A DNA stretch of 64,000 nucleotides from Candidatus Omnitrophota bacterium (GTDB lineage Bacteria > Omnitrophota > Gorgyraeia > 2-01-FULL-45-10): assembly GCA_026387175.1 (NCBI GenBank), contig JAPLME010000003.1:41178-105177 (forward strand), in the 5' to 3' direction. A model generated the notes under the pieces. It ran no database searches. It saw only the letters and a program-made list of their open reading frames with translations, and was not told the origin of the DNA. The position numbers and the translations under genes were made by a program. Below are positions 4,293-11,709 of this stretch, piece after piece (position 1 is the stretch's first letter; the number at the start of each line of letters is the position of its first letter).

Positions 4293-6959
4293 CTAAGAGC
4301 CGTATTTCTCCTGCTCCAGCCAATTTTTGCCGACCTCTATATGCGCCTCGACCGGCACTTTCAATTTTATGACATTCTCCATGCCGTCTTTCACGATCCG
4401 GTAGCTCTCTTCCAATTCCTTCTTCGGGACGTCGAAGACGAGCTCATCATGGACCTGCAGCGTCATCTTTGTCCCCAATCCCTTCCTGGCAAGTTTTTCG
4501 TTTATGGCTATCATCGCGACCTTTATCACATCGGCCGCGGATCCCTGGATCGGCGCATTTATGGCGGTCCTCTCCGCGAACTGCCTCATCCTCATATCGG
4601 GGCTGTTTATTTCCGGGATATAACGCCGGCGCCCCAGAATGGTTGTAACGTAACCTTTCTCCCTGGCCTCGACCATCAGCGACTCCATATATTGTTTAAC
4701 GTCGGGATATCTCTCGAAGTAAGCGTCGATAAACTCCTTGGCCTTACTCACGTCTATATTCAAGCTCTGAGATAGCCCGTACGGGCTCATCCCGTAGATT
4801 ATGCCGAAGTTGACGGTCTTGGCCATGCCGCGCATCTCAGCCGTAACATCTTTTTCATCCACATTAAAGACCAGGCTCGCCGTGAACGAATGGATGTCTA
4901 GGCCTTCCCTGAACGCCTTCGTGAGGTGTTTGTCGCCGGACATATGCGCCAGTATCCTGAGTTCGATCTGCGAATAGTCCGCCGAAAGGAGCAGCCTTTC
5001 TTTCCCTGAGGGAATGAAAGCTCTTCGTATCTTTCGCCCCTCCTCGGTCCTTATCGGGATATTCTGCAGATTCGGCCCGCTCGATGAAAGCCTGCCCGTC
5101 GCGGTGACCGCCTGATTAAACGAAGTATGTATCTTGTGCGTCTTCGGATTCAGAAGATCCGGAAGAGAATCCACATATGTGGATTTAAGCTTAGAAAGCT
5201 CCCTGTATTCCAAAAGCGTCTGTGGCAATTTATGTAAGGAGGCGAGTTTCGTAAGGACCTCTTCGTCGGTGGAGTTCCCTGTCTTGGTCCTTCTGATCAC
5301 CGGAAGCTTGAGCTTTTCGAACAGTATCTCCGAAAGCTGTTTCGGCGAGTTGATATTGAACTCCGCGCCCGCCATCTCATATATATTCTTCGTAAGCCTG
5401 GCCAGTTTCTTTTCCATCTCGGATGAGAGGTCGGCAAGATATTCTTTATCTATGGAAACGCCCGTTATCTCCATCGAGGCCAGGACCTCTATAAGTGGCA
5501 TCTCCACCTTGTAGAAGAGGTCGTCCAGGCCCTTATCGGAGATCTCTTTCTCCAATATTTTGGCCAGGCGCAGCGTCACATCGCTGTCTTCACAGCAGTA
5601 CGCGCATACTCTGCCGACATCGACAAGATCCATTGTGATCGCTTTTTTGCCTTTACCTATCAGCTCTTCTATAGGCGTAGTCATCTTATGGTTCAGATAT
5701 TCGATCGAGATCTCTTCCAGATTATGGTTCGGCTTCGAAGGATTAAGGAGGTACGAAGCCACCATGGTATCAAAGAACTCACCGGCAAGTTTTATGCCAT
5801 AGTTAGCCAAAATTATATATTCATATTTGATATTCTGGCCGATCTTCCTGACGGACGCGTCTTCAAAGATGGTTTTGAGCTCACCGAGAACGGTATCGCA
5901 ATCAAAGTACTTATTAACTGGCACATAACAAGCACGCCCCACTTTCCATGAAAAAGAGACTCCGACAAGAGAAGCCAGCATCGGATCTTCGGATGTCGTC
6001 TCAAAATCGAATGCGAATTCATCCAGATCCCTTAGTTCTTCTACGAGTTTTTTGAATTTCTTGTCATCATCGATCAGTTCGTATACGGATTTAAGTGCTT
6101 TCTTGGGAGTGAATTCCTTTATGAGCGACTTAAATTCCAGTTCCTTGAAGAGCTCCAAAAGCTTTTCCTGATCGGGCTCTTTAAGAACAAGTGCTTTAAA
6201 GTCGATATCTATCGGCACATTCGTATCGACTACGGCAAGCTCTCTGCTCAAGACAGCGATCTTCTCATTTTCACGCAGCGTCTTTTTTCTTGCTTCGCCT
6301 TTAACCTTATCGACATTCTTCAAGAGATTATCGAGGCTCCCGAATTCACTGATGAGTTCTATGGCGGTCTTTTCACCGATACCCTGAACACCGGGTATAT
6401 TGTCCGAGGTATCACCCATCAACGCCATTATGTCAGGCATCATATCAGGGGTAACGCCGTACCTCTCCTTTACCTTGCCCGCATCATAGATCAGGCCGTC
6501 TTTATTCGTGTTATAGACTTTTATATGGTTATTGACAAGCTGAAGGGCATCTTTATCGCCGGTGGCGATAAAGGTCTCGATATCGTTCTCTTCTGCCTTC
6601 TTCGCTATAGTTGCCAGGACATCGTCAGCCTCATAGCCTTCCAACTGGTATATAGGTATATTGTAGGCTGAGACCACTTTCTTGATATAAGGCATCTGTC
6701 CCACAAGCTCATCGGGCATGGGTTTACGGTGTATCTTATACTCCTCATATCTCTTATGCCTGAAAGTCGGACCCTTCATATCGAAAGCCACCGCCAGCAT
6801 ATCAGGCGCGTTATCTTTGATTATCTTGCCCAGCATGGTCACGAAGCCATATACGGCATTGGTCGGCTGGCCCCTGGAATTGGAAAGCGACCGTATGGCA
6901 TAAAAAGCCCTATAGCAGAATGAATTTCCATCGATCAGAAAGAGTCTCTTTTTGGACAT
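4293..6959 (-). CDS. polA: DNA polymerase I (5'-3' exonuclease, 3'-5' exonuclease and polymerase domains)
   Basis: 888 aa; 5' nuclease N-terminus; pol A family motifs (RRxAKxxNFGxxYG-like, VHDE). Confidence 0.95.
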   Translation of the reverse strand: MSKKRLFLIDGNSFCYRAFYAIRSLSNSRGQPTNAVYGFVTMLGKIIKDNAPDMLAVAFDMKGPTFRHKRYEEYKIHRKPMPDELVGQMPYIKKVVSAYNIPIYQLEGYEADDVLATIAKKAEENDIETFIATGDKDALQLVNNHIKVYNTNKDGLIYDAGKVKERYGVTPDMMPDIMALMGDTSDNIPGVQGIGEKTAIELISEFGSLDNLLKNVDKVKGEARKKTLRENEKIAVLSRELAVVDTNVPIDIDFKALVLKEPDQEKLLELFKELEFKSLIKEFTPKKALKSVYELIDDDKKFKKLVEELRDLDEFAFDFETTSEDPMLASLVGVSFSWKVGRACYVPVNKYFDCDTVLGELKTIFEDASVRKIGQNIKYEYIILANYGIKLAGEFFDTMVASYLLNPSKPNHNLEEISIEYLNHKMTTPIEELIGKGKKAITMDLVDVGRVCAYCCEDSDVTLRLAKILEKEISDKGLDDLFYKVEMPLIEVLASMEITGVSIDKEYLADLSSEMEKKLARLTKNIYEMAGAEFNINSPKQLSEILFEKLKLPVIRRTKTGNSTDEEVLTKLASLHKLPQTLLEYRELSKLKSTYVDSLPDLLNPKTHKIHTSFNQAVTATGRLSSSGPNLQNIPIRTEEGRKIRRAFIPSGKERLLLSADYSQIELRILAHMSGDKHLTKAFREGLDIHSFTASLVFNVDEKDVTAEMRGMAKTVNFGIIYGMSPYGLSQSLNIDVSKAKEFIDAYFERYPDVKQYMESLMVEAREKGYVTTILGRRRYIPEINSPDMRMRQFAERTAINAPIQGSAADVIKVAMIAINEKLARKGLGTKMTLQVHDELVFDVPKKELEESYRIVKDGMENVIKLKVPVEAHIEVGKNWLEQEKYGS

Positions 6960-7091
6960 TACACGGCAAGCCTTATGAGGTATGTTTACAGAGGGATGCT
7001 TTCAACATTTATAATAGATTCTATTTTTTAGGGATTTAATCTCTCGGAAATCAATGCGAAAGAGGACGTCAGAACCACTAAACCTATATTA

Positions 7092-7119
7092 ATTATACGG
7101 ATATATGCGGTTTTGTCAA
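7092..7119 (-). promoter_or_regulatory. Sigma-70-like promoter for polA: TTGACA-N16-TATAAT
   Basis: Minus-strand -35 TTGACA at 7119-7114 and -10 TATAAT at 7097-7092, about 130 nt upstream of the polA ATG. Confidence 0.45.
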
Positions 7120-7144
7120 CAAAAATTATGCTTATTACCTTATT

Positions 7145-7348
7145 TCAATGTTTCGCGTCACTGCCGTCAATGCGGCCCGTGTATTCATTCGAGGCATAGC
7201 CCTGCCCATGGCCGCCCCGATACGGACTGCCGTAAACAGCAGGACTGGCTGGATTTTTCAGATGCTGCCTGTTCAGCAATAGTACCGCTATAACAAGAAA
7301 TATTAACGCCAACAATATTTGACTTATAAACACTACCGGCTTCTTCAT
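7145..7348 (-). CDS. Hypothetical small membrane protein (67 aa, one N-terminal TM helix)
   Basis: ORF with a hydrophobic N-terminus and weak SD; no homology recognised. Confidence 0.3.
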   Translation of the reverse strand: MKKPVVFISQILLALIFLVIAVLLLNRQHLKNPASPAVYGSPYRGGHGQGYASNEYTGRIDGSDAKH

Positions 7349-7387
7349 TTATATGCCCCTTTCTTTCCTGAACCCTGACTTATCCAC

Positions 7388-7419
7388 ATTGTAGCTGACG
7401 TTTAAACGTCAGCTACAAT
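7388..7419. repeat. 32-bp perfect palindrome ATTGTAGCTGACGTTTAAACGTCAGCTACAAT overlapping the RT stop codon; probable terminator or protein-binding hairpin
   Basis: Exact reverse-complement symmetry. A related 32-bp palindrome with the same GTTTAAAC core is at 50631-50662. Confidence 0.8.
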
Positions 7420-8500
7420 CATGGTATCCAGTAATATATCCTTGAGCGAACTCTCGAGCTTTTTATGTACCAGATCCTTAAACAGCCTATGCCGCAAGCC
7501 GCCTGTACTGGCGTGCTTGCTGTGCGCCACCCAACAGCGGACGGAATCGCGGATCTCCTTCTCATTCATTTCGCCGTTTTCAAAGAGATGAGTAAATTTC
7601 CCGAGCCTTTTTCTGAAGCGCCTGACATTATCAGATGTAAGGCGCCTATAATCCTTATATATCCTGAACCCTAAGAACTTGATCCCTTTCTCGGTATTGT
7701 AAATCTGGGATTTTCCTTCATGCATCTGAAGCGCTAATCTCTCCTTTAAAAAATCCCTTATCTTACCTTTAACTTCAATAAGCGCTTTCTTATCATTGCC
7801 AAAGATCAAAAAATCATCCATATATCTTATGTAATGGCGAACCCTTAATTGAAACTTGACAAAATAATCCAACTCATTTAAGTAAAGGTTTGCGAGGAAC
7901 TGGCTAGTCAGGTTGCCTATAGGCAAACCTTTTACCATAGCTTCTGTGTTACCCCCCCCCCCCGGCATTTTCCGCTATCTGCCTCGCTGAATCGATTATC
8001 CCATTGATAAGCCGCAGTAGAGGCTCATCCGTAATTCTTTTGGCGAGCATACTTTTAAGTATACCGCGGTCAATCGAAGGGAAAAATTTCTTCACATCCG
8101 CGTGAAGACAGAACCTGTTCGACTTTAAAAACCTCTGGGCTCTGTCCAGGGCCTTATGCGACCCCTTATCCTTCCTGCAGGCGTATGAATCGTAAATAAA
8201 AGTCCTGTCAATGAACGGCTCGATAACGTCATGCACGGCATGATGGACTACCCTGTCCCTGAAAGGCGCGGCGGCGATCTTGCGCTCCTTCGGGTCGTAT
8301 ACGTTAAAGACACGGTACTTCCCGTGCCTGTAAGTCTTATCCGTCAATTCCCTGTGCAGTTTCTCGATCTCCTCTTCAAGAAGGAAGTTAAAATCCGCTA
8401 CCGAGTCCCTGTATCGCCGGGACCTCGCCGCCATATAGGCGGAACGATAGAGATTTTCTTTGGAAACTATCTGGGAATACAGGCCGGTTAATTTCTTCAT
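7402..8500 (-). CDS. DGR reverse transcriptase, split into two ORFs (7949-8500 and 7402-7968) by a 1-nt frameshift in a G12 homopolymer
   Basis: RT motifs FFPSID (motif 2), LPIGNLTSQ (the DGR-specific [I/L]GxxxSQ motif 4) and YMDDFLIFG (motif 5). Deleting one G from the 12-G run (plus-strand C 7952-7963) fuses both ORFs in frame (...ENAGGGGNTEAMVKGLPIGN...). Confidence 0.85.
7952..7963. repeat. C12/G12 homopolymer tract inside the RT coding sequence, at the frameshift site
   Basis: Counted directly: 12 consecutive C on the plus strand. Confidence 0.9.
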
Positions 8501-8532
8501 ATCCCTTTACTTCATTATAGTTATGGAACAAG

Positions 8533-8656
8533 AGAAGTCTTGGCACAGCGAATGCCGTTATTGTTGTTGCGATTAGCATTCGTGTTCGCCGCGTTGTTAC
8601 GGTCCGATACACGAGCGTTGGAACTGTCGTTGTTCCAATTGCCGCCGCGGTAGCCT
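8533..8656 (-). repeat. DGR template repeat (TR), about 124 bp, in the intergenic region just upstream of the RT start
   Basis: About 85% identical to the 3' end of the target gene (9269-9392). Every mismatch is a plus-strand T here, which is an A in coding sense. The coding sense is AAC/AAT-rich (CGC AAC AAC AAT AAC...). Confidence 0.9.
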
Positions 8657-8862
8657 ACAGCGCACAACAGCACTTACGGCGCCGCACCTGGATAATGCGT
8701 ATTAGCGCCTTACAGAAATATATTTAAATATCTCCATAAGGCGCCGTGGTTAATTTTTTCTTTTGTCATAAAAAACAAAGAAGGAAGGCGAGCGCCTGGA
8801 CTTCCCCTTTCCATATTCCGCTCCTGATATCCGTAAACATCAGGATTCTGGGCCTATACAAT

Positions 8863-9201
8863 TCAAAGAGCGGACGATTTTAACCAGCCGCCGACCATCT
8901 TCCCTACCTCTATGGACGATTGGCAGAAAAAATCATAAGCATGTATATTGACGTATTTCATATCTTTGGCTATACGCATCATAAAACGTAAGGCATCTAA
9001 CTTTAAATTTACTTTTATCAATATCTCTCTTTTATTTTTTGAATAAACAGCTTCGATCAACATCTCCAGTATATCCAGAAGGATCGTTTCGATCCTGTCC
9101 GCCAGTAAAAACCTCTGGTCCTTCGGAAAGTTCGCGATCTTGGGCAGCATCCAGAGGATCAACCGGTAATGCTTCTCGACTACGGGAGTTATTTTCTTCA
9201 T
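8863..9201 (-). CDS. avd: Avd-like accessory variability determinant (four-helix-bundle family, related to 23S rRNA intervening-sequence proteins)
   Basis: 112 aa; KHYRLILWMLPKIANFPKDQRFLLADRIETILLDI...EVGKMVGGWLKS resembles bAvd/TIGR02436. Positioned between the target gene and the TR. Confidence 0.7.
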   Translation of the reverse strand: MKKITPVVEKHYRLILWMLPKIANFPKDQRFLLADRIETILLDILEMLIEAVYSKNKREILIKVNLKLDALRFMMRIAKDMKYVNIHAYDFFCQSSIEVGKMVGGWLKSSAL

Positions 9202-9210
9202 TCAAACCTC

Positions 9211-9232
9211 AAAAAGGGATGTGTCCCCTTTT
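9211..9232. repeat. Hairpin AAAAAGGGATGTGTCCCCTTTT with flanking A/T tracts, between the target-gene stop and the avd start; inverted copy at 10888-10910
   Basis: Stem AAAAGGG/CCCTTTT with loop ATGTGTC. About 27 of 31 nt including flanks are reverse-complementary to the element in the target 5' UTR. Confidence 0.6.
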
Positions 9233-9262
9233 CAAAAATTCAAAAACCCAAAGAGCTACAAA

Positions 9263-10870
9263 CTAAGGGGAAGTCCTGGCACAGCGAATGCCGACATAGT
9301 AGTAGCGACCAGCATCCGTGTACGCCGCGTAGATACGGTCCGATACACGAGCGTAGGAACTGCCGGTGCTCCAACCGCCGCCGCGGTAGCCTGAGCCGGT
9401 CGCGTTAGTTCCCGGCCAGTCGGTATTAGTTGTGCTTAAACTGCCGTCGCCGTGACTTCCGATAAATAACCTGCCGGTACTATTGCCTACGGTAACCGGC
9501 CTCTCCCATAAATTCCCTGAAAGCTCCATTATTCCGTAATAGGAACCGCCGGAGGCATATCGGCTTGAGGAACTGGTCGCGGCAAATCCTGAGCGCATAG
9601 GACCTGATACAGTACCGTTGTAGGAGCAATTAGCGTTGTTAGTAGCAGTTTCATTATTCGCGCCGGGATTTGTGGGCCCGGTAGGACCAGCGGTGGGAGC
9701 GGTTGGCCCCCAGGCGTATTCATTGGCTATCGGGTTCATCAGCCCTATAGACGCCTTTTCAAACTCAAGCTCTGTAAATGGCCGGAGTCCCGCCCAATCA
9801 GCATAAGCACATAAGTCGGGCCAGCTTACGTAGTTACAGGCTATCCATTCGCCGTCAGTGGATTCGTTCGGTGTGCCATTATTGTTGTAATCACAGTAAA
9901 ACGTTATTGGGGTAGTGGCTGGAATAGCGGCATCACATCGTATTCCACTACGATAATTAGAAGCGGAAGCGATATTAGCGGCAACACTGGTATTTGCCAT
10001 AACATATATATTGGTTACGGATGTTGTGCCCGAAGCCAGGGTTGTCCCGTTACCAGCCCTTTGGTTCTGCTGGGCACGGTTTAATGTATTCAGAAAATCC
10101 CGGTATTGGCCCTGGTTAACTTCATATTTCATCATGTAGAAACCGTTATAACCTTTGGGGAAAGCGGCAGGTATTGGGCCAGCCTGATCGCCGCCATAAG
10201 TATTTGAATTCGGATAATAGAGATTCCCGGTTGCTGTGCCCACAATAATAGAGTCTTCAGAGGATATCTTGTAAGGGCTGGTGGTGTTGGGATAGCTATA
10301 GAAAGCGTTTGTCTCAGTACCGCCTGAACCTACATAGAACGAACCCGTCGGCACATAGACCATTTCTATCGCCATAACTTTAACCGAGATAGAAGCCGAA
10401 GGAGAGACTCCATCTGTGGCGTAATCCCAGTATACGACTTGGTTGGTCCCGGGCCTGCAGAAAGCGCCTTTTTGATCGGCGCTTATTCCGGTACCGCTTT
10501 GGGCGTTATAGCTACTTACTGTCCCCCCTGAAATTAATGTGGCATGGCTCCAGGCTGTATCGGTACCGGCATTCGCGGCGTCGAAGTACTTCACGAATAC
10601 CCAGGCCCGGTCGAAGAAAGTCTGGCCGTTATTGTCTACGGAAGTGAAAGAATTGTCCCAGACAACGTCGAACTTTACGCCTATCGTACCGTTCGGCTGG
10701 CCTGCGGCTTTATATAAGGAGACATTACTTACGATTATATTATTAGCGTAAGCCTGGGAGGTGAATATTGAATAATGGAAAGCGGAGAGTGCTACTAATA
10801 AGAAGAGGACGCGAAACTTAGAGAGAGAGAGAGAGAGAGAGGAAAGGCTACGGGCAAAACGTTTCAACAT
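9263..10870 (-). CDS. DGR variable target protein: secreted, with an FGE-sulfatase / C-type-lectin-fold C-terminal domain carrying the VR
   Basis: Signal peptide MLKRFARSLSSLSLSLSKFRVLFLLVALSAFHYSIFTSQAYA. The FGE-like region runs YEVNQGQYRDFLN...WPDLCAYADWAGLRPFTELEFEKA...GNLWE. The C-terminus ...GRYYYVGIRCARTSP is encoded by the VR. Confidence 0.85.
   Translation of the reverse strand: MLKRFARSLSSLSLSLSKFRVLFLLVALSAFHYSIFTSQAYANNIIVSNVSLYKAAGQPNGTIGVKFDVVWDNSFTSVDNNGQTFFDRAWVFVKYFDAANAGTDTAWSHATLISGGTVSSYNAQSGTGISADQKGAFCRPGTNQVVYWDYATDGVSPSASISVKVMAIEMVYVPTGSFYVGSGGTETNAFYSYPNTTSPYKISSEDSIIVGTATGNLYYPNSNTYGGDQAGPIPAAFPKGYNGFYMMKYEVNQGQYRDFLNTLNRAQQNQRAGNGTTLASGTTSVTNIYVMANTSVAANIASASNYRSGIRCDAAIPATTPITFYCDYNNNGTPNESTDGEWIACNYVSWPDLCAYADWAGLRPFTELEFEKASIGLMNPIANEYAWGPTAPTAGPTGPTNPGANNETATNNANCSYNGTVSGPMRSGFAATSSSSRYASGGSYYGIMELSGNLWERPVTVGNSTGRLFIGSHGDGSLSTTNTDWPGTNATGSGYRGGGWSTGSSYARVSDRIYAAYTDAGRYYYVGIRCARTSP
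9269..9392 (-). repeat. DGR variable repeat (VR) at the 3' end of the target gene
   Basis: Aligned to TR 8533-8656. About 18 substitutions are all at TR-adenine positions, falling in codon positions 1 and 2 of TR AAC/AAT codons (e.g. TR CGC AAC AAC AAT AAC versus VR CGC TAC TAC TAT GTC). The 3' ends are identical (IMH-like, GGCATTCGCTGTGCCAGGACT versus ...CCAAGACT). Confidence 0.9.
10820..10841. repeat. (AG)11/(TC)11 dinucleotide microsatellite inside the signal-peptide codons (SLSLSLS) of the DGR target gene
   Basis: Counted directly; 22 nt of perfect AG repeats. Confidence 0.9.
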
Positions 10871-10887
10871 ATTTCCTCCTGTTTTTT

Positions 10888-10910
10888 AAAAATGGGACAC
10901 ATCCCTTTTT
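10888..10910. repeat. Inverted copy of the 9211-9232 hairpin, in the 5' UTR of the target gene between the promoter and the SD
   Basis: In minus sense it reads AAAAAGGGATGTGTCCCATTTTT, followed by AAAAAACAGGAGGAAATATG. Confidence 0.6.
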
Positions 10911-10941
10911 CTAAAGAAAACACGAAAATCCAACTTACCTG

Positions 10942-10971
10942 ATTATACTTCTCTCCCCCGTCTCGCGTCAA
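10942..10971 (-). promoter_or_regulatory. Sigma-70-like promoter of the DGR target gene: TTGACG-N18-TATAAT
   Basis: Minus-strand -35 at 10971-10966 and -10 at 10947-10942, about 70 nt upstream of the ATG. Confidence 0.45.
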
Positions 10972-11036
10972 CTGTTTAATAAAATTGGTATGGGGTCAGG
11001 TCTCCACTCTACACTTTTACCAGATTATTAATTTTA

Positions 11037-11318
11037 TCATGCCTGCTTTAATAGCCTGCGTATTTCATCGTGATTACCATATGCGATGAATTCTATAAGG
11101 CCCTTCTGTTTTTTAATCAAAATACGCCTATTTGAGGCGGCATCTATCTCGAAATAATCATCCTTACCCGCCATCTTTCTTACTCGTAAATCGGCAAATA
11201 TCATATCCTTGTTGTAATAATTGAATAGCTCGCGGATCTTTTCATCGATCCTGGATTTTTCAGAATGAGGAAGCTTCTTGTATACACGTTCAAAAGAAGG
11301 CTTGATAATAATCTTCAT
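11037..11318 (-). CDS. Type II toxin of the RelE/ParE superfamily (mRNA interferase-like)
   Basis: 93 aa; N-terminal KKLPHSEKSRIDEKIRELF and C-terminal IAYGNHDEI patterns of RelE/ParE. Lies downstream of a small DNA-binding partner. Confidence 0.75.
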   Translation of the reverse strand: MKIIIKPSFERVYKKLPHSEKSRIDEKIRELFNYYNKDMIFADLRVRKMAGKDDYFEIDAASNRRILIKKQKGLIEFIAYGNHDEIRRLLKQA

Positions 11319-11322
11319 GCAT

Positions 11323-11610
11323 TTATGATGCCTTATGAAGATGTCTTATAGCCGCATCAGCGCTGTCAAACGCCTTTCCTTTCGCGGAGGCAAGCTTTTC
11401 GATTTTCTTCCATTCCTGCGGTGTATAAGGGTTATCCTCTTTGATTGTTGTGGTCACTCTTAATAACATAAAACCACCTGAAGCCGCTTTAAAGGCTATT
11501 TCGGATCCTTCTTTAAGGCCGAGCAAAGCCCTCACGGCTCTTGGAATGGTAGTCTGACCTTTTGAGGTAATATGCGACATGTAATATCTGCCCTTATTAA
11601 GTGTTTTCAT
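11323..11610 (-). CDS. AbrB/MazE/SpoVT-family antitoxin (swapped-hairpin DNA-binding domain)
   Basis: SKGQTTIPRAVRALLGLKEGSEIAF is an AbrB-type motif. The gene is 4 bp upstream of the toxin gene. Confidence 0.7.
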   Translation of the reverse strand: MKTLNKGRYYMSHITSKGQTTIPRAVRALLGLKEGSEIAFKAASGGFMLLRVTTTIKEDNPYTPQEWKKIEKLASAKGKAFDSADAAIRHLHKAS

Positions 11611-11668
11611 TTTCGCGCCGCTCCTTTCGTATTCATTATTCCTTACTTTCTTACTTCCTTACAATACA

Positions 11669-11696
11669 AATATACCACATTTCGCCGGTTTGTCAA
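11669..11696 (-). promoter_or_regulatory. Sigma-70-like promoter of the TA operon: TTGACA-N16-TATATT
   Basis: Minus-strand -35 at 11696-11691 and -10 at 11674-11669. Confidence 0.4.
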
Positions 11697-11709
11697 TAGG
11701 AATCAGGTT

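Follow-up and report, generated by a model that had tools for sequence, protein, structure and literature searches.

The 64-kb stretch of DNA analysed here (the window) stems from a MAG of Candidatus Omnitrophota and contains a genuine chromosomal diversity-generating retroelement (DGR). The element as such is ordinary and had been annotated before: NCBI lists a 'diversity-generating retroelement protein Avd' in the same MAG. Its best viral relative is just 42% identical. A target gene with its VR, Avd, a spacer, a TR, the RT motifs and a promoter-like site all lie on the minus strand, as described in the initial annotation. The accompanying claim of a complete, self-contained cassette does not hold for the DNA as assembled, in which the RT is broken by a frameshift at a run of twelve guanines (G12) that the MAG shares with two independent Logan assemblies. 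The initial annotation had missed the hypermutable repeats of the RT and target genes, and the novelty of the locus appears to be the gating of a DGR by these repeats rather than the identity of the DGR.

The target gene (9263..10870, minus strand) encodes a protein of 535 aa, in which a signal peptide is followed by an N-terminal domain rich in beta structure and by a C-terminal FGE/C-type-lectin domain with the VR. Its start codon (ATG at 10870) is preceded by the ribosome binding site AGGAGG (10880..10875) and, further upstream, by the promoter-like site TTGACG-18 nt-TATAAT (10942..10971, minus strand). The previously proposed promoter is thus recovered as a match to consensus only, with agreement at 11 of 12 positions; identical -35 and -10 hexamers precede the orthologous target in a relative (L177). 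The assignment of the C-terminus agrees with a match to the Pfam family FGE-sulfatase (PF03781, 1.2e-15, residues 242-532) and with the predicted fold, since formylglycine-generating enzymes are the top PDB folds for the AlphaFold model (pLDDT 89.8, pTM 0.89). The protein belongs to a large Omnitrophota family in which the mature N-terminus, ANN(I/L)xVSNVSL, is conserved. The coding sequence is flanked by a 28-nt inverted repeat, the arms of which are 93% complementary and occur in just these two copies in 64 kb. The upstream arm (10883..10910) is a small hairpin in the 5' UTR of the target and is not conserved in L177; the downstream arm (9211..9238) is a hairpin between VR and avd and is absent at the equivalent position in L170, L174 and L171.

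The VR (9270..9392, minus strand) comprises the last 41 codons of the target, in line with the roughly 40 codons expected, and ends 7 nt before the stop codon. The TR is found at 8534..8656 (minus strand) and has no other VR partner within the window; it is 123 nt long instead of the 124 bp given before and contains 37 adenines. The two repeats differ at 18 positions, every one of them a TR adenine and every one at codon position 1 or 2, while no mismatch occurs over the 86 non-A positions. Outside the VR, seven Logan contigs match the window without mismatch over the 966-1873 nt compared, and all seven have the identical TR. Two of them (L003 and L007) have VRs with 12 and 16 differences from that of the window, all 28 of which fall on TR adenines. 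VR diversity with an invariant TR, which the initial annotation had put forward as a test of the element, is therefore seen in public contigs. The VR turns over between samples on an otherwise mismatch-free background, and the DGR has recently been active.

Between target and spacer lies avd (8863..9201, minus strand, 112 aa; MCX5677657.1). Its proposed identity is confirmed by the Pfam family bAvd (PF22296, 1.8e-19) and by the NCBIfam equivalog model NF033474 (103.3 bits, cutoff 80). The spacer, estimated before at about 200 nt, measures 206 nt (8657..8862, minus strand) and forms part of the DGR RNA. The 3' ends of VR and TR are both complementary to one of its segments (8809..8794, AAGGGGAAGTCCAGGC). 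The 10-bp helix between spacer and TR 3' end is 94% paired in 10 relatives, compared to 51-64% in slid controls, and four of its pairs are changed on both sides among these relatives. At the other end of the cassette a perfect 32-nt palindrome (7388..7419; 16 + 16 nt, 100% complementary) spans the RT stop codon and folds with -16.4 kcal/mol (z = -9.3). It is followed by a small ORF of 67 aa (7145..7348, minus strand) with a signal or TM segment and a YRGGxGxGYA..EYxGRID motif. Profile searches returned no family match for this ORF, which is conserved directly downstream of the RT in the DGR clade of the window (L008, L170, L171 and L175, as well as the run-on C-terminus of P0002). For the adjoining AbrB-RelE/ParE toxin-antitoxin pair, the antitoxin is supported as AbrB-family (TIGR01439, 31.7 bits, cutoff 28.3); the putative toxin gave only a sub-threshold ParE-like match (E 0.0024).

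The RT is of the DGR type as claimed: among solved structures its best relative is Brt of Bordetella phage BPP-1 (8ub7_A, E 9.4e-48, versus 1.8e-23 for group II intron RTs). It is distributed over two overlapping ORFs in different reading frames. The N-terminal ORF (7949..8500, minus strand, 183 aa; MCX5677656.1) holds motifs 1-3, covers RVT_1 profile positions 8-106 and ends with AENAGGGG, a TAA following immediately after the G tract. The expected IGNLTSQ motif 4 and YMDD are present, but they reside together with the thumb in a separate ORF in the +1 frame (7402..7968, minus strand, 188 aa), which covers RVT_1 profile positions 116-205 (1.7e-13). The frameshift site is the G12 homopolymer (7952..7963, minus strand; C12 on the plus strand) in a variable loop just upstream of motif 4. 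With G11 or G14 instead of G12 an RT of 365 or 366 aa would result. The loop is variable among homologues and, compared to BPP-1 Brt, an insertion; it tolerates length changes.

A second repeat, (CT)11 (10820..10841, minus strand), occupies codons 10-17 of the target within the n-region of the signal peptide and is currently in frame. Eight, eleven or fourteen units give the full protein, any other number a product of 16-25 aa. G12 is the sole homopolymer of at least 9 bases and (CT)11 the sole dinucleotide repeat of at least 6 units in 64 kb, and both lie inside the 3.6-kb cassette. G/C runs of at least 7 bases are otherwise depleted in the window (1 observed versus 5.5 in shuffles). GGG makes up only 16.8% of the glycine codons, and where Gly-Gly-Gly is encoded elsewhere in the window (five runs) the codons are mixed.

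Both tracts are conserved at equivalent sites with different lengths among relatives, and the RT tract is found in both frame states. In related Omnitrophota DGRs the G tract of the equivalent RT loop has lengths of 9-14. It is in frame as G9 in L090/L009 and L010 and out of frame as G13 in L175 and L176 and as A9G14 in L171. L170 carries G5AG7, which is out of frame, no longer a pure repeat and looks like a locked or decaying copy. Of the contigs in the P0001 cluster (about 98-99% aa identity), three carry an uninterrupted RT (...QLSGGGNLETMAKGLPIGN...), whereas in another, 4619 nt long, a 179-aa ORF ending in QLSGGG is accompanied by a 182-aa ORF starting with MAKGLPIGN. We infer that this lineage holds both intact and split RTs, the OFF allele being read from protein ends and not from DNA. 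For the window's own strain no length variation was seen among the three assemblies that cover the tract, the MAG and the Logan contigs of two other runs (L001 and L002) all having G12. At the position of the (CT)n repeat the target orthologues have (CT)19 in L090 and (CT)16 in L177, and an out-of-frame TAA follows the repeat in these two as in the window. A DGR that is 44% identical (L016) has a homologous target with (AG)15 at the equivalent position. All (CT)n alleles known as DNA are in frame, a consequence of ascertainment bias, as they were found via protein homology; P0203 is the single candidate for an OFF allele of this repeat. Among other DGR targets, L024 has a 5' G10 tract in frame and the archaeal L099 a 5' G9 tract out of frame, for which G8 or G11 would restore a protein of 388/389 aa. 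Over 141 non-redundant DGR loci, nine long repeats were located in the cassette zone, which holds 29% of the bases, and three outside (p = 0.0014), a test that comprises 12 repeats in all, some from one locus.

The relatives that have kept the G tract show high synonymous divergence (pS 0.45-0.88; NG86 dS from 0.7 up to saturation). The RT half downstream of the tract shows pN/pS values of 0.12-0.21 for every pair, with ORFs intact over 152-193 codons. The range of the OFF-OFF pairs (0.12-0.20) includes the value of the ON-ON pair (0.15). The downstream half is thus under purifying selection even between out-of-frame copies.

With moderate confidence we favour the explanation that the window contains a working DGR whose RT, and probably also its target, is gated by slipped-strand phase variation. 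By analogy to established DGR biology, the avd-spacer-TR RNA would be reverse-transcribed by an RT-Avd complex with adenine-specific errors, and the cDNA would take the place of the VR in the 3' end of the target gene, which codes for a secreted ligand-binding protein of the FGE/C-type-lectin type. Slipped-strand mispairing during replication would alter the length of the poly-G tract, which lies in an RT surface loop before motif 4 that is tolerant of length changes. In the window lineage G11 and G14 would be ON and give a full-length RT, G12 would be OFF due to the stop right after the tract, and G10 and G13 would be OFF as well. Mutagenic retrohoming would then be limited to a stochastic, heritable subpopulation, while OFF cells would hold their VR fixed, which amounts to an explore/lock control. 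The (CT)n repeat in the signal-peptide codons could in the same manner toggle the target protein, on at n = 8, 11 and 14 and otherwise off. Leaky expression from OFF alleles through slippage of RNA polymerase or ribosomes on the G run may contribute. High-frequency, reversible changes of tract length within a clone that are selected as regulation are what we infer from these sequence comparisons.

An alternative is that DNA length is not the switch and that the out-of-frame RT gene provides a constant low level of RT by RNA polymerase slippage or ribosomal frameshifting, in which case the tract would set the RT dosage instead of an on/off state. With its SD-like G run ahead of a stop codon, GGG GGG GGG GGG TAA C is reminiscent of the +1 site of prfB; the 0-frame TAA abuts the tract, and slipping by +1, from GGG to GGU, yields exactly the full-length protein. 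Such recoding would also accommodate that the downstream RT half is under purifying selection in out-of-frame copies and that the VR diversifies although 3/3 assemblies covering the tract have G12. In L171 the G14 tract adjoins an A9 run, and transcriptional slippage classically occurs on A/T runs. However, the shift that is needed varies, being +1 in the window and L175 and -1 or +2 in L170, L171 and L176, which does not fit a single programmed ribosomal shift, and L175 has no stop immediately after the tract. Moreover, in-frame G9 alleles exist and ON and OFF forms coexist within the P0001 lineage, so that the DNA length itself varies. We therefore regard recoding as the main route to RT as unlikely. 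A trivial origin of the frameshift would be an error of sequencing or assembly, the true tract being G11 or G14 and the RT intact in an ordinary complete DGR. Long G homopolymers are error-prone on Illumina instruments and break assemblies; in L002 and L172/L173, indeed, contigs stop at the tract or close to it, and L174 shows an implausible G24 at 2.3x coverage. All tracts of at least 12 bases with readable RT sequence on both sides are out of frame, in contrast to the two G9 tracts, a pattern that could also arise if short-read assemblers miscall the length of long G runs. Against an artefact, the NCBI MAG agrees with two independent Logan assemblies on G12, L170 is out of frame with short, reliably sequenced runs, and the G9 versus G10-type difference in the P0001 lineage is within the reliable short-read range. 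The other large ORFs of the window, furthermore, form a dense, mostly contiguous minus-strand array (judged from the ORF list alone). A mere artefact is accordingly highly doubtful.

The same frameshift could also reflect a recent non-adaptive inactivation, with the G run merely encoding a Gly-rich loop, acting as an accidental mutational hotspot and leaving the DGR on its way to decay. This would agree with an out-of-frame RT in 3/3 assemblies of the window strain, with the interrupted and still out-of-frame tract of L170, and with large surveys in which a fraction of DGRs is inactive (PMC8144416). Decay is difficult to reconcile with the low pN/pS of the downstream half, which is as low between OFF copies as between ON copies and comes without internal stops, and with VR turnover on a background that otherwise shows no mismatch to the window. 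Selection for stable expression should break up G tracts, and their persistence as pure runs across lineages near synonymous saturation, although GGG is a minor glycine codon, counts against decay. A second repeat in the target and similar repeats in unrelated DGR targets point in the same direction. We consider inactivation decidedly unlikely.

A point against the favoured explanation is that phase variation through repeats has been described mostly for pathogens adapted to a host. Our literature search found no paper tying DGRs to such phase variation; the regulation of retrohoming is stated there as an open question, and an on/off switch of a hypermutation system by slippage has, according to this search, not been described for DGRs before. 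Compared to the archetypal BPP-1 DGR (mtd-avd-TR-brt), the window has the same components in the same order (target with 3' VR, avd, spacer, TR, RT), TR/VR differences at adenines only, an RT motif 4 of the form I/VGxxxSQ, and in Brt the best solved homologue of its RT. Its spacer pairs with the TR 3' end, which fits the Sp-TR interplay that Handa et al. reportedly found in the BPP-1 DGR RNA. In contrast to the phage-borne BPP-1 element, the DGR of the window is cellular and chromosomal, and its target has a signal peptide and an FGE-type fold and is not a tail fibre. Its RT has an extra poly-G-encoded loop before motif 4 in which the tract breaks the frame, its target contains a (CT)n repeat, and a conserved small ORF follows the RT. 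With cellular DGRs that have FGE-type targets (Treponema denticola TvpA, Legionella LdtA, those of CPR/DPANN (Paul et al. 2017) and of the PVC group (Roux et al. 2021, PMC8144416)) it shares a target that is secreted or at the surface and has its VR in a C-terminal FGE/CLec domain, an uncultivated, small-celled host lineage and VR diversity that is detectable in metagenomes. Repeat tracts interrupting RT or target were not found for these systems in the literature search, an absence that is no proof.

The tracts themselves resemble SSR contingency loci, such as Neisseria opa (CTCTT in signal-peptide codons) and pilC (poly-G) and the poly-G loci of Campylobacter jejuni and Haemophilus. Common to both are a long poly-G or pyrimidine-rich short repeat early in the ORF or in signal-peptide codons, ON and OFF frames among close relatives with an intact downstream ORF, and a genome otherwise poor in such tracts. 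At the window, however, one of the gated genes codes for a mutator enzyme, the DGR RT, whereas contingency loci control surface structures or modification enzymes. Its host is an Omnitrophota bacterium from the environment, and high-frequency, reversible switching is predicted. Reversible mutator switches are known from mutL and mutS, where tandem-repeat indels toggle the mutator phenotype. As there, a hypermutable repeat would toggle mutagenesis such that a subpopulation explores while the remainder stays stable, but at the window the toggled mutagenesis would be confined to the 123-nt VR of one gene instead of acting genome-wide.

The cassette has the classical order of a diversity-generating retroelement (DGR) and lies on the minus strand from about 10971 to 7388. 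A sigma-70-like site (TTGACG-18-TATAAT, 10971..10942) agrees with the consensus at 11 of 12 positions and is followed by an AGGAGG ribosome binding site and the ATG at 10870 with which the target gene starts (535 aa, 10870..9263). The final 41 codons of the target constitute the variable region (VR, 9392..9270). Further downstream on the same strand are avd (9201..8863), a spacer of 206 nt that separates avd from the template repeat (TR), the TR itself (8656..8534) and the reverse transcriptase (RT) gene (8500..7402), which is split at a G12 tract. A comparison of TR and VR shows 18 mismatches. Each of these affects a TR adenine and lies in codon position 1 or 2, while none of the 86 non-A positions differs.

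The individual parts were identified by independent comparisons. Avd exceeded the cutoff of the equivalog NF033474 (103.3 bits vs 80) and matched PF22296 (bAvd, 1.8e-19). The RT carries IGNLTSQ, of the motif 4 class [IVL]GxxxSQ, and YMDD, of the class YxDD. Its closest PDB relative was 8ub7_A (E 9.4e-48), a chain that we verified to be Brt from Bordetella phage BPP-1; for group II intron RTs, the best value was an E of 1.8e-23 in the PDB comparison, and the group II maturase model scored 154 bits, far under its cutoff of 300. For the target, a Pfam search assigned residues 242-532 to PF03781 (FGE-sulfatase). Since a PDB sequence search with the target returned no match, the fold was tested via a predicted structure: an AlphaFold model built from 57 homologues (pLDDT 89.8, pTM 0.89) had formylglycine-generating enzymes as its top PDB folds. 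A search of the window revealed no second VR or second RT. When 6900-11700 was scanned against Rfam at E <= 1, the sole match was to a flavivirus 5' UTR and is spurious. Two other assignments were considered and are unsupported. A defence-RT system lacks support from PADLOC, which returned only generic RT and DRT-model matches for the RT and none for Avd or the target; a phage origin of this DGR group lacks support from a scan of viral contigs, in which the best viral RT was 42% identical. The tested defining features of a DGR are present except an uninterrupted RT frame, with the directional marker at the 3' end of the repeats being a candidate. The initial annotation had the parts list essentially right. 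The TR measures 123 nt rather than 124, and the description of the element as complete does not hold: a tract that had been overlooked interrupts the RT, which in this assembly is not a single open reading frame (ORF). There is nothing unusual about the DGR as such, and it has been annotated before: NCBI (locus tags NTY76_009xx) names Avd as a DGR protein and lists the N-terminal half of the RT as a separate protein.

At their 3' ends the repeats diverge at non-A positions, with GACTTCCCCTT in the VR and GACTTCTCTTG in the TR as candidate IMH and IMH*. A spacer segment, AAGGGGAAGTCCAGGC (8809..8794), is complementary to the VR 3' end (9265-9280), with 15 of 16 bases matching and 12 nt in an unbroken run, and also to the TR 3' end (near 8534) when G-U pairs are allowed. 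In several lineages the spacer complement is a closer match to the VR end than to that of the TR. Spacer and repeat end covary among relatives, where GGGGAAGTC occurs with GACTTCyCy and GGAGAGGTT with AACCTCTCC. Over 10 pairs of this helix, 94% of the cells were paired, with 4 pairs changed on both sides, compared with 51-64% for slid controls; these values were scored on the sequences from which the helix was derived, which comprise about two major types only. The covarying helix supports a putatively functional DGR RNA.

Several further elements surround the cassette. Directly after the RT lies a 67-aa ORF (7145-7348, minus strand) with a signal/TM segment and a YRGGxGxGYA..EYxGRID motif, for which no family match was obtained. 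Homologous small ORFs were found 3' of the RT in L008/L010, L170 (with an internal stop), L171 and L175 (with the motif twice), which are loci from relatives, and as a run-on C-terminus of the homologous protein P0002. The association with the RT holds although the genomic neighbours differ. The ORF looks like a conserved, putative fifth gene of this DGR group. The surroundings of the cassette as a whole vary among relatives: in L090 it lies near an IMPDH-like gene and dnaE, in L171 near PilZ and a response regulator, and in L172 near ileS...aroA. A 28-nt inverted repeat of 93% complementarity (9211-9238 and 10883-10910) brackets the target coding sequence exactly; its core motif has just these two exact copies in 64 kb, and each arm forms a small hairpin. 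An invertible-segment switch was considered for these two copies and set aside, the repeat being absent at the same positions in L170, L174 and L177. The repeat could allow pairing of the 5' UTR of the target mRNA with its 3' end, or could be a small palindromic insertion. The RT stop codon is located within a perfect 32-nt palindrome (7388-7419, ATTGTAGCTGACGTTT/AAACGTCAGCTACAAT), which as DNA folds with -16.4 kcal/mol (z = -9.3) and at which the Logan contig L001 ends exactly. A classical terminator was dismissed, as a T-run is missing. Palindromic REP-like elements (CATTGCGAGG...GAAGCAATC and similar) occur in L090 (1650-1770 and 3500-3950), L176 (560-760) and L171 (1560-1640). In related cassettes such insertions are intergenic, being found in the VR-avd gap, within the spacer and 3' of the RT, and in L090 they take the place of the small downstream ORF. 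Finally, the toxin-antitoxin pair that was initially proposed next to the cassette (11037-11610, minus strand) is supported for one partner: the AbrB/MazE-family antitoxin passes TIGR01439 (31.7 bits vs 28.3), while the 93-aa partner had a ParE-like match below threshold (18.2 bits vs 28) and no NCBIfam match, such that the pair remains putative.

The interruption of the RT is caused by a run of 12 G (C12 on the plus strand, 7952-7963). It ends the first RT ORF of 183 aa, which reads ...AENAGGGG followed by TAA. The half with IGNLTSQ and YMDD lies in the +1 frame as an ORF of 188 aa. A tract of G11 or G14 would give an RT of 365 or 366 aa that is colinear with its homologues; the fused RT at 100% identity was absent from a collection of 5.8 billion proteins. 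As judged from the ORF list only, the remaining large ORFs of the window lie densely and mostly contiguously on the minus strand. In the protein, the tract corresponds to part of a loop that immediately precedes motif 4; homologues differ in the length of this loop, and relative to Brt it constitutes an insertion. The G12 run is the only homopolymer of at least 9 bases in the 64-kb window, in which G/C runs of at least 7 are depleted (1 observed, the RT tract, vs 5.5 in shuffles). GGG is a minor codon, accounting for 16.8% of the 1039 glycine codons in 27 window ORFs, and the five other Gly-Gly-Gly runs in the window use mixed codons.

Relatives were gathered via protein searches, look-ups of the encoding contigs and scans of metagenome and GTDB contigs. 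Within a group of Omnitrophota DGR RTs of 70-91% amino acid identity, a G tract is present at exactly the same site. The RT is in frame with G9 in L090/L009 (JAFGRN010000057.1) and in L010; it is out of frame with G13 in L175 and L176, with A9G14 in L171 and with G5AG7 in L170. The more distant RTs (L011-L013 and 150 others) are without a tract, and among 176 DGR loci (1.86 Mb) G/C runs of at least 9 inside the RT are confined to this group. A lineage of RTs that are about 98-99% identical (P0001 cluster) includes an intact RT (...QLSGGGNLETMAKGLPIGN...) on three contigs and, on a fourth contig of 4619 nt, a 179-aa ORF ending in ...QLSGGG together with a 182-aa ORF starting with MAKGLPIGN. This contrast is the pattern that would be expected for G9 vs G10. 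Three further contigs were excluded because their poly-G probably marks an assembly break or a chimera: L174 has G24 at 2.3x coverage and non-RT sequence past the tract, and L172 and L173 have G11 and end 45-70 nt later with no RT sequence beyond. In a rough neighbour-joining tree of the N-terminal RT halves, the tract-bearing RTs fell into 2-3 groups interleaved with tract-less ones, which would fit an ancestral tract with losses as well as repeated gains.

Evidence for mutagenesis in nature comes from seven Logan contigs of several sequencing runs, which agree with the window without any mismatch in the 966-1873 nt compared from avd, spacer, TR and RT. VR diversity at adenine sites combined with an invariant TR had been set beforehand as the test of the element, and this was observed: in the two contigs that reach well into the VR, L003 and L007, 12 and 16 differences to the VR of the window were found, all 28 of them at TR-adenine sites, and the TR was identical in all seven contigs. 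Of the other contigs, L004-L006 start just downstream of the VR and L001 and L002 inside it, a pattern that VR heterogeneity produces in de Bruijn assemblies. VR turnover next to an invariant TR implies that the population recently had RT activity available, even with the RT out of frame in its assemblies.

A second repeat is found in the target gene. (CT)11 at 10841..10820 (minus strand) provides target codons 10-17, in frame, within the charged n-region of the signal peptide. The full target would be obtained only with n = 8, 11 or 14, and any other n leads to a stop after 16-25 aa. This is the only dinucleotide repeat of at least 6 units in the 64-kb window. At this position the orthologous cassette of L090 carries (CT)19, likewise in frame (MRNKFVRTLSLSLSLSLSLSN...), and L177 has (CT)16 with promoter hexamers and ribosome binding site as in the window; in the window, L090 and L177 alike, a TAA in an alternative frame follows the repeat. 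Two further target homologues show SLSLSL runs at the repeat site. (AG)15 occupies the equivalent place in a homologous target (mature N-terminus ANNVSISNV) whose DGR has an RT that is only 44% identical. The alleles verified on DNA, (CT)11, (CT)16 and (CT)19, all keep the gene in frame (ON), which reflects ascertainment bias because they were found by protein homology. A frameshifted (OFF) allele may be represented by P0203, a target of 87% identity that is annotated to start within the signal peptide.

Repeats are also seen at other DGR loci. Across 141 non-redundant loci, long repeats were enriched in the cassette zone, with 9 inside and 3 outside at 29% of bases inside (binomial p = 0.0014), where the numbers are small and not fully independent. 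The target of L024 contains G10 at about codon 14, in frame. One DGR cassette contains two copies of a motif of about 30 nt, AACCCACCCTTCAAATC-G(9-10)-CGAAGCA (L024 1004 and 2775; L025 664), one inside target codon ~14 and the other just upstream of avd. In an archaeal metagenome-assembled genome (MAG), L099 (CAZEVB010000019.1, 540-673) has G12 upstream of a DGR target and G9 at codon 8 of this target. This G9 puts the N-terminal ORF out of frame, making it the only target OFF allele seen, though of a different DGR target; G8 or G11 would give a protein of 388 or 389 aa with a proper signal/TM segment. At 7219 of L144, from a Christensenella MAG, G11 lies between TTGACA and the TATAAT-like TATCATATAAT, and a 546-aa gene that neighbours a DGR follows about 120 nt downstream; by analogy, this placement is the geometry of promoter-spacer phase variation. 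The C-termini of the RT homologues P0007, P0012, P0016, P0022 and P0025 run on into ERERERER, which implies, at the level of the protein sequences, (GA)n repeats directly 3' of the RT in those loci.

These observations can be combined into a model. As inferred from established DGR biology, RT-Avd would copy the avd-spacer-TR transcript, misincorporating opposite adenines, and the VR would then be replaced by the cDNA. The RT would be switched by slipped-strand events at the G tract and the target by the (CT)n tract, such that some subpopulations would mutate while others would keep their variant. We lean slightly towards this model. A broader view is that simple-sequence repeats are an unrecognised control layer of DGRs: poly-G would stochastically toggle the RT between exploring and locking in a group of Omnitrophota DGRs, and 5' repeats would independently toggle the targets, by (CT)n or (AG)n here and by G tracts in archaeal and other loci. 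One locus would then combine two different mechanisms of hypermutation. We offer this generalization tentatively, as a possibility that may well turn out not to hold.

Other explanations of the split RT were weighed against slipped-strand switching. A miscalled homopolymer length is very unlikely: the identical G12 recurs in L001 and L002, which are Logan assemblies from two other runs, and with the MAG this makes three out of three assemblies, i.e. no length variation was seen within the strain of the window. If the tract length were nevertheless an assembly error, an ordinary, already annotated Omnitrophota DGR would remain. The gene might instead be read as one protein by slippage of the RNA polymerase or the ribosome on the G run, and the GGG...GGG TAA C of the window indeed resembles the +1 site of prfB. 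The shift that restores the frame, however, is +1 for the window and L175, -1 or +2 for L170, L171 and L176, and none for L090 and L010. Such a direction that differs between lineages argues against a single programmed ribosomal frameshift, which we reject as the general mechanism, and we consider recoding unlikely.

Recent non-adaptive inactivation would account for an interrupted frame, yet the RT half downstream of the tract appears to be under purifying selection also in the OFF copies. Over 140 codons downstream of the tract, pN/pS was 0.12-0.21 in every pairwise comparison, with values for OFF-OFF pairs comparable to that of the ON-ON pair (0.15), at a pS of 0.47-0.88, i.e. near saturation. 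The downstream ORFs are open for 152-193 codons with no internal stops. Judged from these comparisons, the RT in OFF copies is not a decaying pseudogene, which makes inactivation decidedly unlikely. That a pure G tract is kept across near-saturated divergence, and this with a minor codon, points to a repeat that is maintained or continually regenerated.

To our knowledge, DGRs are the only natural system of targeted protein hypermutation in prokaryotes. How mutagenesis is balanced with the fixation of adaptive variants was stated as unknown in a recent study of a Bacteroides DGR. A slippage-prone tract in the RT, if true, would be a simple, heritable and reversible limit, with most cells locked and few mutating. 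Elements of this kind will be overlooked or counted as inactive in DGR surveys that accept an RT only with an intact ORF, and assemblies will break at loci that bear such tracts. If the gating holds, the tract would provide a ready-made stochastic switch for engineered DGR mutagenesis.

A full-text literature search found no paper that links DGR RTs or targets to homopolymeric or repeat-based phase variation. What is new, the DGR itself being known, would be the gating of RT and target by repeats, which is supported by comparative evidence. With contingency loci the cassette shares an exceptional repeat within an ORF, ON/OFF polymorphism among close relatives, seen for the RT tract, and a conserved downstream ORF. 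Reversible high-frequency switching in a clone, the experimental hallmark of contingency loci, would be predicted for this cassette.
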